Assembly (NCBI GenBank): GCA_034520945.1 | Contig: JAXHNB010000002.1 | Span: forward strand, 367,759-431,758 | Origin: Trueperaceae bacterium | GTDB lineage: Bacteria; Deinococcota; Deinococci; Deinococcales; Trueperaceae | Length of the DNA: 64,000 nucleotides | Direction: 5' to 3' | Made by a program: the position numbers | In this document: piece after piece, positions 50,301 to 53,300 of the stretch | Layout of the letters: each line of letters opens with the position of its first letter | How positions within the stretch are numbered: position 1 is the first letter of the stretch

Positions 50301-53300
50301 ACGGGTCGGCGTAGAAGCGGCCCCGCTGGTACGACACGATCTCGACGCCGCTGACGTCGCGGCCCGGGTAGAGGCGAGCCAGGACCGGCGCGTGCGCCGC
50401 AAGCTCGGCTTCGAAGTCGTGGCTGGTCATCACGCGGGAGGCGACGAGCTTGCGGTGGCCGCGGAAGCGGAACACCAGCAGCACCATGGAGGCCTGCTGA
50501 AACGCGTAGGGATCGGGGGAGGCGGGGTCTCGGGTCATGGAGGGCACGGGCGCTGGGGGTCCGGCGCGGCGGCCGGGGCCCGCGCTCGGCACCGGCCCAG
50601 GCTACCTGCGCGCGCACCCCTTGTGCGCAGGGCCCCCCAGGCCTTAGGATTTAAGGTATCCGATCGACGGCGTGGAGGTGCCGCGTCGTTCGACCCGAAC
50701 GTCCCCGGCGCGCCGCGCGCCGCGAACACAGGAGGCCATGCCATGAGACAGACCGTGAACGACGCCCCGCGACAGTCCGACGAGAAGCGCGAGGTCCTGA
50801 ACCGCACCCTTTCGCAGATCGAGCGTACGTATGGGAAGGGTGCGGTGATGCGGTTGGGGGATGAGGCGTCGCGGGAGCGGGTGGGGGTCATTTCGACGGG
50901 GTCGATGAGTGTGGATCTGGCGTTGGGGGTGGGGGGCGTCCCGCGGGGTCGGGTGGTGGAGGTGTACGGCCCGGAGGCGGGGGGGAAGACGACGTTGGCG
51001 TTGCACGTGATCGCGGAGGCGCAAGCATTGGGGGGCGTGGCCGCGTTCGTGGACGCGGAGCATGCGTTGGACCCGAGTTACGCGGAGGCGTTGGGGGTGG
51101 ACGTGGAGGAGTTGCTCGTGTCGCAGCCGGACACGGGTGAGCAGGCGCTCGAGATCATGGAGTTGTTGGTCCGCTCGGGGGCGGTGGACGTGGTGGTGGT
51201 GGACAGTGTGGCGGCGTTGGTGCCGCGTGCGGAGATCGAGGGGGAGATGGGCGATTCGCACGTGGGGTTGCAGGCGCGGTTGATGAGTCAGGCGCTGCGG
51301 AAGTTGACGAGTGTGGTGTCGAAGTCGGGCACGACGGCGTTGTTCATCAATCAGGTGCGGGAGAAGATCGGGGTGATGTACGGCAATCCGGAGACCACGC
51401 CGGGCGGTCGGGCGTTGAAGTTCTATACCAGCGTGCGGATCGAGGTGCGCAGGAAGGGGGACGTGAAGGTGGGGGCGGACAAGGTGGGGAACCGGGTGCG
51501 GGTGAAGGTGACGAAGAACAAGGTCGCGCCGCCGTTTCGGGAGGCGGAGATCGACATCGTGTTCGGGCAGGGGATCGATAAGACGGGGGATCTGATTCAG
51601 GTGGCCAGCGACCTGGGCGTGATTCAGAAGAGCGGGTCGTGGTTCTCGTACGGCGATACTCGCTTGGGGCAGGGCAAGGAGAAGGTGGGCGATTACCTGC
51701 GGGAGCATCCCGAGGTCGCCCGCGAACTTCGTGAGCGCGTCACCGCCACCCTCCACCCACCCAAGACCCCACAGGGCACGCCGGACGGCGTGACGCAGGC
51801 GGGCGGCGCGACCGGCGATGCGCACCTCGCGGGCGAAGACGCCGAGGCGGAGATCGAGGCCGTGGCGTAGGCAGCCTGTCGCGTACCCGGCATCGGGACG
51901 TGAGGTGCATAGGGACGTTTGGTTCTGACCATGCGGGGCACGACGCTCGGTAGGATGGGGAAATCCCTCGTCCCCACGCGGCGACCTACCGAGGTCGTGT
52001 CGCGGAAGGAGCCCGCAATGGTCGTTCCCAGCCCCCAGTCCTCCGCCCCTGGACCCGACCACGGGTGGAGGGTCAACGACTTCGCGTTGGTCGTGGCCAC
52101 GGCCAACGGAACCGGTTCGCAGACGGCCAACCTGGCACTGCTGCGAAGCATCTTCGACATGGGCGTGCCCGTTCACGGCAAGAACGTGTTCCCCTCCAAC
52201 ATTCAGGGCCTCCCGACCTGGTTCCACATCCGCGCCAGCGCGGACGGCTGGGTGGCACGGCAACAGCCCGAGATCGCTGTCGCATTCAACGCCGCCACCC
52301 TGCACGAGGACGTCGCCTCGCTCCCCCCGGGCGGGGCGCTGTTCCTGAACGGCGACCTGCGCGGGGCGCCCGAACGCGACGACGTCACCACCTACCGCAT
52401 CCCCGTGGGTGATCTGATGCAGGGCCTCCAGGCGAAGGGCAAGCTCAAGGACTACCTCGCCAACATGACCTACCTCGGCGTGCTGACGCAGTCGTTCGGC
52501 ATTCCGCTGGACGTGGTCGAACAGGCACTCTCGCGACAGTTCGGCGGCCGTAGCAAACTGGTGGACGCCAACATGCCCGTGGTCGAGGCGTCGTACCGCT
52601 GGAGCAAGGAGACGTCCAGCAAACGCGACCCGTTCGTGATCGATGCCATGGGCGCCACCGACGATCTGATCCTCATCACCGGCAACGACGCCGCCGCCCT
52701 CGGCAGCGTGTTCGGCGGCGTCAGCTTCGCGGCGTGGTACCCCATCACGCCCTCCACCAGCGTGATCGACGGCCTTCGCGACCACCTGGTCCGCCTCCGT
52801 ACCGAACCCGACGGCACCCCCAGCTGGACCATCGTGCAGGCCGAAGACGAACTCGCCGCGATCGGGATGATCATCGGCGCCGGTTGGGCCGGCGCGCGCG
52901 CCATGACCGCCACCAGCGGGCCCGGCCTCAGCCTGATGGCGGAGTTCGCCGGCCTCGGGTACTTCGCCGAGGTGCCCGCCGTCGTGTGGGACATCCAGCG
53001 GGTCGGCCCCTCCACCGGGCTTCCCACGCGGACCGGCCAGGGCGACCTCGCCTTCGCGTACGGACTCGGCCACGGCGACACGCGCCACCCCGTGCTGCTG
53101 CCCGGGTCGGTCGGCGAGTGCTTCGAGTTCGGTTGGCGCGCCCTCGACCTGGCCGAGCAACTCCAGACCCCCATCTTCGTTCTCTCCGACCTGGATCTCG
53201 GCATGAACACCTGGATGGCCGAGCGCTTCGCCTACCCCGATACGCCGATGCAGCGCGGCAAGGTGCTGCGAGGCGACGAGATCCCCGACGGCTACGCCCG

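Follow-up and report, generated by a model that had tools for sequence, protein, structure and literature searches.

RecA commonly serves as a single-copy marker and is the textbook example of an SOS gene. The genome of the Trueperaceae bacterium analyzed here contains two recA genes, which raises the question how two copies at unrelated places can share a nearly identical core when their promoters and both termini of the encoded proteins differ. One copy is situated in the window, i.e. the whole analyzed stretch of 64,000 nucleotides from contig C2, and is named recA2 in the following.

Two recA genes with a sharply delimited common core

A search with the Pfam profile PF00154 yielded exactly two matches in the genome of 10 contigs, C2:418552-419337 (plus strand, in the window) and C6:599395-600180 (minus strand), which confirms the survey's finding of two full-length recA genes at unrelated loci. 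The reported neighborhoods were also verified by Pfam; the C6 copy is adjoined by cinA and rny in a cinA-recA-rny locus, and genes for a 2-oxoacid oxidoreductase lie downstream of the window copy. A blastn comparison of the window gene plus 3 kb of either flank to the whole genome gave C2:418546-419520 versus C6:600186-599212 as the sole non-self match (975 bp, 99.282% identity, 7 mismatches, no gaps), and the ungapped alignment fell to chance-level identity within a few bases at either core end. Both comparisons reproduce the initial claim that the 99.3% identity is restricted to a 975-bp core, and that flanks, first codons and C-terminal tails are unrelated. The differing bases lie at core positions 8, 9, 10, 240, 393, 894 and 928; three of the seven were counted as non-synonymous, and two core-encoded residues differ between the twin proteins when the alignment is read by eye. 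Apart from recA, tuf (1224 bp, 99.67%) is the coding gene that this genome contains in two dispersed and nearly identical copies. The features of the second locus are as follows (window coordinates):

50621..50626, plus strand: putative -35 hexamer TTGTGC of the recA2 promoter, read from the sequence
50642..50656, no strand: palindrome CCTTAGGATTTAAGG, proposed LexA operator (SOS box), motif shared with lexA and imuB-like/dnaE2
50731..50735, plus strand: Shine-Dalgarno sequence GGAGG, 7 nt 5' of the ATG, read from the sequence
50743..51870, plus strand: recA2, full-length RecA of 375 aa, open frame without internal stop, Pfam RecA and RecA_C
50743..50787, plus strand: copy-specific N-terminal codons of recA2, 15 aa, outside the putative conversion tract, chance-level identity to the C6 copy
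50788..51762, plus strand: putative conversion core, 975 bp, 99.28% identity to C6:600186-599212, spanning all of PF00154 and RecA_C
51763..51870, plus strand: copy-specific acidic C-terminal tail of 35 aa with the end EAEIEAVA, plus stop codon, from the alignment to the C6 copy
51919..54902, plus strand: korA/korB-like 2-oxoacid:ferredoxin oxidoreductase genes, synteny anchor of the second locus, Pfam POR_N/POR, then TPP_enzyme_C

In the recA2 protein, residues 18-279 match RecA (PF00154, E 1.1e-135) and residues 282-337 match RecA_C (PF21096, E 1.3e-22); two stretches of the translation resemble by eye the P-loop and the DNA-binding loop L1/L2 motifs of the E. coli protein. The consensus promoter scan made no call at recA2 or anywhere else in the window. 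By inspection, a TAGGAT (50645-50650) was found 18 nt downstream of the TTGTGC and inside the palindrome, and the -35 register of relatives reads TTGCGC, TTGCCA or TTGACA. Oxidoreductase genes follow the second recA in eight genomes. The gap between them is 48 nt here, and no terminator-like site was found in the window including this gap; in the seven other genomes, the gap measures 120-364 nt and contains its own promoter-like motif. Therefore, one SOS operon comprising recA2 and korAB was dropped as a candidate, and the genes are probably not one operon.

A proposed palindromic operator in front of the second copies

In total, 81 Trueperaceae genomes were scanned with PF00154, and 19 of them showed two full matches; the genomes examined in detail were selected for showing two matches and are mostly metagenome bins. 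The palindrome CCTTA-N5-TAAGG was detected in the promoter of all 21 second recA copies (at most one mismatch, 48-188 nt upstream of the core) versus 0 of 21 cinA-linked copies. The 3.47-Mb genome analyzed here has five such sites with at most one mismatch, the recA2 site among them. Another one is situated upstream of lexA; the palindrome was also found upstream of lexA in 5/5 other complete genomes, i.e. in six of six, and at lexA it overlaps a -35/-10-like promoter. Moreover, the palindrome lies 5' of an imuB-like gene in this genome, and a dnaE2-like gene comes next. Exact sites number 3-8 per genome versus 0-3 for the reversed control.

The genes lexA, recA and imuB/dnaE2 form the conserved core of SOS regulons. 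We read the window copy as a LexA/SOS-regulated recA, with LexA as the presumptive binder of the palindrome and with a presumably different expression of the two copies. The LexA protein of this genome contains the domains LexA_DNA_bind and Peptidase_S24; its alignment to the E. coli protein spans residues 4-197 and retains the Ala-Gly site as well as the Ser and Lys positions. The search for an IrrE-type Peptidase_M78 domain gave 0 matches in this 97.4%-complete genome, and the control D. radiodurans was matched.

It appears rather improbable, although more plausible than the other alternatives discussed below, that the cores are indeed converted but the second copy is not under SOS control, the palindrome being bound by a different regulator, e.g. 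of the Crp family, or being a mere promoter element. Such an assignment would be in line with the finding that the remaining palindrome sites of five genomes mostly lack a repair gene next to them: by Pfam, none was found beside 10 further sites, which are accompanied by genes for an APH kinase, YCII, a TnsA-like protein, ankyrin, an Asp/Arg hydroxylase, a Crp-family regulator, BrnT and unknowns, and imuB/dnaE2 homologues were absent within 1.5 kb of the 15 palindrome sites fetched. The palindrome is also located 5' of a Crp-family gene in G023, a Crp-family gene lies divergent from lexA in the present genome, and our literature searches found no published LexA motif for Trueperaceae. However, the palindrome occurs at lexA in every one of the six genomes, at 26 recA loci and also at imuB-like/dnaE2. 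Its overlap with the -10 region is typical of repressor sites, and it is unlike the CRP/FNR consensus.

Probable concerted evolution of the two copies across the family

The near-identity of the recA pair, which had been claimed for other two-copy Trueperaceae, was found in 19/19 genomes with two full matches, with a within-genome core identity of 94.9-100% over 936-1037 bp that is confined to recA. In the phylogenetic tree, the paralogs pair by genome in 20/20 genomes (support 100/98-100 or sequences identical). At both loci, orthologous flanks with 66-91% identity were found in nine genome pairs; the cores in the compared genome pairs show 68-95% identity between genomes and 98-100% within a genome. 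Divergence at four-fold sites within genomes is 0 in 13/19 pairs (median 0, maximum 0.169), and between genomes it has a minimum of 0.089 and a median of 0.62. The core ends shift by about 70 nt among genomes, and therefore a fixed cassette boundary does not exist. The copy-specific N-termini, read by eye, follow the pattern [DE][KR]E[KR]..L in second copies and M(D/N)EQRKK.L in cinA-linked copies, and the tails counted from a fixed anchor have a median of 30 aa and a net charge of -4.5 in second copies compared to 23 aa and -3 in cinA-linked ones. The four other families of the order have one strong match in 52/53 genomes.

Because of the genome-wise pairing, the orthologous flanks and the alike four-fold sites, the earlier proposal of an old duplication homogenized by recurrent gene conversion appears well supported, with conversion being the process that we infer from the observed identity pattern and the observed orthology of both loci. 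A mosaic conversion tract was not found among the pairs examined. The most diverged pair, in G017, shows 53 differences, 47 of them synonymous, which are evenly spread; this pattern is that of a long lapse and not of a tract.

Recent, independent recA duplications in each genome, the copies of which would be alike owing to their youth and not to conversion, are very unlikely. The 98-100% identity in most genomes and the occurrence of the second copy in at least seven different gene contexts could be expected from such events, and the earlier reservation that synteny is lacking among some of the second loci was upheld. Nevertheless, sister genomes (G032/G054, G068/G080, G071/G056, G010/G024, G003/G038, G049/G066) share the flanks of the second locus with 70-91% identity and their cores still group by genome, the operator and the type-specific N-terminal pattern are common to all 21 second copies, and copy-specific tails are kept between related genomes, e.g. 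G068/G080.

Even less credible is the assumption that purifying and codon-usage selection alone keeps the copies alike without sequence exchange. RecA is highly conserved, and the third-position make-up of the core is unusual (G 0.65, C 0.24 versus C 0.45-0.63 in the neighbors), which suggests strong codon constraints; the G017 proteins differ in only 2/300 residues despite 17% four-fold divergence. But selection is unable to equalize four-fold sites in 13 of 19 pairs at the between-genome median given above, and it is G017 that presents the picture of selection alone.

Integrity of the assembly

Equally hard to credit is an artefact of assembly, binning or polishing, in which a single recA was placed twice or the genes of two strains were merged and polished to near-identity. 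The metagenome assembly has 5.13% estimated contamination and contains suspicious tandem near-identical duplications of 20 kb and 17 kb plus a 25.6-kb contig-end overlap, but both loci have unique flanks and lie deep within their contigs (432 kb and 987 kb), and the two-copy structure also occurs in six single-contig genomes (G003, G011, G020, G023, G030, G032). Further points against it come from the reads and from the short-read bins. Both junctions are supported by independent k-mer contigs of public runs. Those of X1 and X2, which belong to one sample, probably that of the source, exit the core at window positions 50788 and 51762 into the C6 flanks; these contigs branch from the core into both flank sets and display the branching at the core ends without phasing the flanks. 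The perfectly matching core contigs had depths of 41-61 versus 22-30 for flank contigs in X1 and of 31-50 versus 17-22 in X2, and the run X3 from another study gave 22.6-31.6 versus 11-14; contig depth does not give a copy number, and this roughly two-fold ratio lends weak support. In X3 and in a further run, X5, some stretches of the core had no cover. Moreover, short-read bins break exactly at the core and contain paired contig ends with only the first 26-53 profile positions, and both cores are interrupted by N gaps in G036.

The many matches restricted to profile positions 1-55 had suggested an intein or insertion in recA, which was dropped since they are contig ends or scaffolds with N gaps, at which the repeat had remained unassembled. 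G036, the handle of the genome previously counted as recA-less, is here such a scaffold, in which an N gap interrupts each core after 141 bp; provided that the handle denotes the same genome in both analyses, this is a two-copy genome. Hence, a perfect repeat of 1 kb breaks short-read assemblies and makes recA seem missing or truncated in many bins (no PF00154 match in 9/81 family genomes, none above the cut-off in 18/81), and in long-read bins the second copy is scored as a marker duplication.

Age of the duplication and lineages with a single copy

Five genomes from three genera have one recA only, which carries the operator and the second-type N-terminus, and their rny loci are without recA. 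On the outgroup-rooted RNase Y tree, these single-copy genomes are nested among two-copy lineages, which implies that the cinA-linked copy was lost in them. The two-copy state is found on the basal branches of the same tree, and recA adjoins rny in 3/5 outgroup genomes. The genomes with a second copy linked to the oxidoreductase had been assigned to two separate clades; this could not be maintained, because these genomes form one moderately supported clade (82-89%) on the RNase Y tree. Hence, the age of the duplication indicated by this synteny is lower than claimed, and its use as proof of a family-deep duplication is weakened. Regarding common origin, the conserved operator that precedes each of the 21 second copies is a better marker than the oxidoreductase synteny.

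Discussion

The sequence data are best explained by an ancestral recA pair with conversion-homogenized cores and a second copy under a LexA box, a scenario that we regard as quite probable. The ancestor of the family would have possessed two recA genes. The first would be part of the cinA-recA-rny operon, an arrangement common to other families of the order, without a damage operator; the second would have its own promoter overlapped by the palindromic operator, read as LexA (SOS) box. Basal RecA would be provided by the operon copy, and extra RecA by the second copy once LexA cleaves itself after DNA damage. The cores of about 950-1030 bp, which encode the whole folded protein, would be repeatedly overwritten by non-reciprocal homologous recombination and thereby evolve as one sequence. 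Conversion would halt where the homology ends, such that the promoter/operator, the 9-17 codons at the start and the acidic tail at the C-terminus would stay copy-specific and be inherited orthologously. The two tails, which differ in length and charge, may also differ in function.

A more far-reaching idea is speculative and on balance rather doubtful. The RecA isoforms might co-assemble on the same DNA filaments, where divergence of one core would poison its partner (paralog interference), such that frequent self-catalyzed conversion would be selected as the means by which the family can retain two differently wired genes. The tail of the SOS-induced isoform, longer, more acidic and with a terminal hydrophobic patch (LEA or LF motifs), might then alter the filament behavior after damage, e.g. 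its autoinhibition or partner binding. If true, not only the amount but also the quality of RecA would be switched in the cell.

The genes tufA/tufB of Salmonella and E. coli represent the model of concerted evolution by gene conversion. The recA pair is similar in having two dispersed copies for an abundant essential protein that stay near-identical over long periods, including synonymous sites, and have unrelated flanks. It differs from tuf in that the homogenized gene encodes the recombinase expected to catalyze the exchange, and in that the copies differ in regulatory regions and protein termini, hence the products are not identical.

Closer relatives offer another comparison. Deinococcus deserti and D. 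peraridilitoris are reported to have one recA in a cinA operon and an extra stand-alone recA, as well as a LexA-controlled imuY/dnaE2 cassette; in D. deserti, the RecA proteins share only 81% identity and differ in function, and induction of either recA gene proceeds via IrrE/DdrO (PMC6300522, PMC3564903). These bacteria belong to the same order and share, as far as described there, the combination of a cinA-linked recA with a separate extra copy. Unlike this account of D. deserti, the Trueperaceae cores are 95-100% identical, the extra copy has a motif that also precedes lexA, and the IrrE-type domain of the IrrE/DdrO control was not found in this genome by the Peptidase_M78 search. Retention of multiple functional recA genes whose expression has diverged is also described for recA1/recA2 of Myxococcus xanthus (PMC7029660) and for the recA paralogs of Acaryochloris marina (PMC11086944). 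However, those paralogs are diverged in sequence, and concerted evolution is not reported in the abstract and passages considered (PMC7029660, PMC11086944); PMC11086944 does not contain the term "gene conversion". A prior report of such a recA pair was not found in the open-access literature searched. New here are the operator on the second copy only and the existence of lineages without the cinA-linked copy.

Collectively, Trueperaceae would have carried two recA genes throughout the history of the family, with a recombinase that homogenizes its own genes and with regulation split between an operon-embedded and an operator-controlled copy. Hence, they may offer a natural system for conversion rates, tract limits and the question why promoters and tails escape conversion, which could also be used to test whether the C-terminal tail of RecA tunes its activity in vivo.

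Two nearly identical recA genes in one genome

The open reading frame at window 50743-51870 (+) encodes 375 aa with no internal stop, and its product matches the Pfam families RecA (E 1.1e-135) and RecA_C. Searching all 10 contigs (3.47 Mb) of this Trueperaceae genome (G000) with PF00154 returned exactly two matches:

Window 50743-51870, + strand: second, operator-linked recA (recA2), PF00154 match
C6:599395-600180, - strand: cinA-linked recA, PF00154 match

A blastn comparison of the window gene, extended by 3 kb at each end, with the whole genome yielded a single non-self match (C2:418546-419520 vs C6:600186-599212 in contig positions; 99.282% over 975 bp, gap-free). 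This core, window 50788-51762, covers both Pfam domains and holds seven mismatches (positions 8-10, 240, 393, 894 and 928), and in the ungapped alignment identity falls to chance level inside a few bases at both of its ends. Outside it, 15 N-terminal codons and a 35-residue tail are copy-specific; a residual faint DNA similarity between the two tails suggests that the original duplicate probably included them. According to Pfam, the C6 copy lies between cinA upstream and RNase Y (rny) downstream. Upstream of the window copy are genes for a rhomboid protein and, divergently oriented, an S8 protease; downstream of it are korA/korB-like genes for an oxidoreductase and a gene for a CLC channel. 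The PF00154 search, blastn and ungapped alignment hence confirm the survey's finding of two near-identical recA genes with unrelated flanks.

The assembly has suspicious features, namely tandem duplications of 20.3 kb and 16.9 kb (99.5% and 98.7% identity; C1:274916-315488 and C2:47290-81254, outside the window) and a contig-end overlap of 25.6 kb at 99.1% (C5:869904-895528 with C10:2862-28492, also outside). Assembly or strain artefacts are the probable cause of all three, and they may explain the 5% 'contamination' estimate. The recA pair is unlike them, being dispersed, gene-bounded and deep within large contigs. Independent support comes from Logan k-mer contigs of public sequencing runs, X1 and X2 from one sample, probably the source of G000, and X3 from another study. 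In X1 and X2, contigs pass from the core into the C6 flanks at window positions 50788 and 51762, and one X3 contig runs from the last 30 core bases across the tail into korA; such contigs do not phase the flanks and show only that each end of the core leads into two flanks. Perfectly matching core contigs had depths of 41-61 in X1 and 31-50 in X2 against 22-30 and 17-22 for flank contigs, and X3 gave 22.6-31.6 for the core against 11-14 for the flank, although k-mer contig depth is not copy number.

Distribution in the family

Two full-length PF00154 matches were found in 19 of the 81 Trueperaceae genomes scanned, G000 included. Both loci were fetched from the 18 others and from two further genomes, G036 and G056. 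Within genomes, blastn identity was 94.9-100% over 936-1037 bp and confined to recA (19/19 and G056), the shortest core (G047) measuring 936 bp in one orientation and 939 bp in the other. Of the 19 assemblies with at most 10 contigs, two full copies are present in 15 and a single copy in each of G025 and G067; G056 combines a full copy with a broken one, and both copies of G036 are truncated. In G056 the cinA-linked gene (L042, G056:C1:2391064-2391850) is split by one indel, with an in-frame TAA, and its paralog is intact; this is a sequencing error or else the beginning of a loss like that in other genera. G036 is a scaffold in which 100-N gaps begin 141 bp into each of both cores. In the other four Deinococcales families, 52 of 53 genomes (>=90% complete) have one strong match, the exception being G126 with two.

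Many short-read bins of the family lack recA or have it truncated: nine of the 81 genomes gave no match at all, and 18 gave none over the cut-off. Fragmented bins such as G016, G005 and G075 contain pairs of contig ends holding only the first 26-53 profile positions. Both patterns are attributed to a 1-kb repeat that short-read assembly did not resolve, which biases marker-gene completeness estimates and recA-based phylogenies.

Concerted evolution of the cores

In a maximum-likelihood tree of 40 cores, both copies of each genome are sisters in 20/20 genomes, with support of 100/98-100 or identical sequences. Flanks were compared in nine genome pairs, 2 kb on each side of both loci where synteny is kept; they share 66-91% identity between genomes, and the cores 68-95% between versus 98-100% within genomes. 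G032 and G054 illustrate this: their second loci are 80.5% identical upstream and 90.6% downstream, and their cores 87.4% identical to each other versus 99.7% to their own paralogs. Within genomes, 13 of 19 pairs have zero divergence at four-fold degenerate sites (median 0, maximum 0.169 in G017), compared with a closest value of 0.089 and a median of 0.62 between genomes. The listed mismatches fall mostly at ragged ends of the blast match. The G017 pair, an exception with 53 evenly spread differences, 47 of them synonymous, shows the outcome when conversion lapses. A mosaic conversion tract was not seen directly among the recA pairs examined. Core ends differ by about 70 nt among genomes, which argues against a fixed cassette boundary. 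Collectively, tree pairing, orthologous flanks and four-fold sites support the survey's reading of an old duplication homogenised by gene conversion.

A putative LexA box at the second copy

Aligning upstream regions revealed the palindrome CCTTA-N5-TAAGG, often extended to TACCTTA...TAAGGTA. Allowing one mismatch, it precedes the second copy in 21/21 cases, 48-188 nt upstream of the core, and the cinA-linked copy in 0/21 within 400 nt. At the same threshold, G000 has only five sites:

Window 50642-50656: before recA2
Ahead of a gene for a protein with LexA_DNA_bind and Peptidase_S24 domains, at a distance of 5 nt
Ahead of an imuB/dnaE2-type cassette, in which a gene with weak similarity to IMS/impB precedes one for a DNA polymerase III alpha homologue of 1094 aa
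C6:20565-20579: between a ZapG-like gene (-) and an unknown ORF (+)
Doubtful site with GC-rich spacer

The palindrome also precedes the best LexA homologue in five of five other complete genomes, at a distance of 30-104 nt, where it overlaps a TTGACA/-10-like promoter. Exact sites number 3-8 per genome versus 0-3 for a reversed control. The G000 LexA aligns with residues 4-197 of E. coli LexA and keeps the Ala-Gly site, Ser and Lys; an IrrE-type Peptidase_M78 domain was not found in G000. With its positions at recA2, lexA and imuB/dnaE2, the palindrome is read as the predicted Trueperaceae LexA box, and recA2 in the window as a predicted SOS-regulated recA. Against this reading stand the heterogeneous neighbours of the other sites annotated in five genomes, which include APH kinase, YCII, TnsA-like protein, ankyrin, Asp/Arg hydroxylase, Crp-family regulator and BrnT genes.

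The C6:20565-20579 site is perfect and lies directly behind TTGACA; the adjoining ORF (167-203 aa, without Pfam match) may belong to this regulon as a so far uncharacterised gene. A Crp-family regulator gene (C1:172798-173610) is divergent from G000 lexA with the palindrome region common to both, and a second one (L154:720-1394, G023) also has the palindrome upstream. Upstream of second LexA paralogs in L054 (G003) and L055 (G020), the palindrome takes the variant forms TACCCCAGCTTTTAGGGTA and ACCTCATATTTTGAGGT, which hints at paralog-specific operator variants.

History of the two loci and their protein ends

Directly upstream of rny, recA is found in three of five outgroup genomes (families f3 and f4), and Deinococcus has a cinA-ligT-recA operon (PMC6300522); hence, the operon copy holds the ancestral position. 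A single recA is present in five genomes of the family (G025, G050 and G067 of one genus, G031 and G015), in each case with the palindrome and the second-type N-terminus, and their rny loci are without recA; in G015 cinA adjoins rny. An RNase Y tree, with four other families as the root, shows the two-copy state on the basal branches of the family (G047, G017) and places the single-copy genomes within two-copy clades at two points. This nesting implies that the cinA-linked copy was lost at least twice and that the operator-linked copy alone suffices. The eight genomes with an oxidoreductase-linked second copy form one clade in the same tree (82-89% support) and not the two separate clades proposed earlier, so that this synteny probably characterises that clade.

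In several genomes (L005, L027, L033, L038) the stretch from recA2 to korA contains a conserved TGTGTCAACGTG-like word and a TTTAAGATG/AATAGTATG-like stretch ahead of korA, which suggests a separate regulated promoter for the oxidoreductase genes. In two genomes a small conserved ORF (~90 aa) of no obvious family lies right after the second recA stop:

L010, about 5060-5330 (G020)
L013, about 5090-5340 (G030)

The N-termini are type-specific, with the pattern M(D/N)EQRKK.L in cinA-linked copies and [DE][KR]E[KR]..L in second copies. Measured from a fixed anchor, median tail length and net charge are 30 aa and -4.5 in second copies and 23 aa and -3 in cinA-linked copies. The former commonly terminate in LEA, MEA or VEA, or have LF inside the tail, and the latter end in GEE, DEE or GEA; tails of the same type are conserved across related genomes, e.g. 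G068 and G080. The C-terminal tail of E. coli RecA is an autoinhibitory flap, and a functional difference between the two tail types is possible, though hypothetical.

Relation to other paralog pairs

In the open-access texts searched, neither a pair of recA genes nor a LexA motif was reported for Trueperaceae, and concerted evolution between recA paralogs was not reported either. Known multi-recA bacteria carry diverged copies, namely D. deserti (81% identity; PMC3564903, PMC6300522), M. xanthus (PMC7029660) and A. marina (PMC11086944); in Trueperaceae the cores are near-identical. The G000 genome also has a pair of EF-Tu (tuf) genes, 99.67% identical over 1224 bp:

C5:484698-485921: tuf, outside the window
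C5:293237-294460: tuf, outside the window

Genes for EF-Tu are the precedent for concerted evolution of paralogs. In the G000 tuf pair, third codon positions almost lack C (C 0.03, G 0.68, T 0.28), and the recA core (G 0.65, C 0.24, with C at 0.45-0.63 in neighbouring genes) has a milder form of this shortage. Beyond the earlier survey, we infer a regulatory split between the copies and add copy-specific termini and lineage-specific loss. The recA pair of Trueperaceae is a variant both of tuf-like concerted evolution and of multi-recA genomes.
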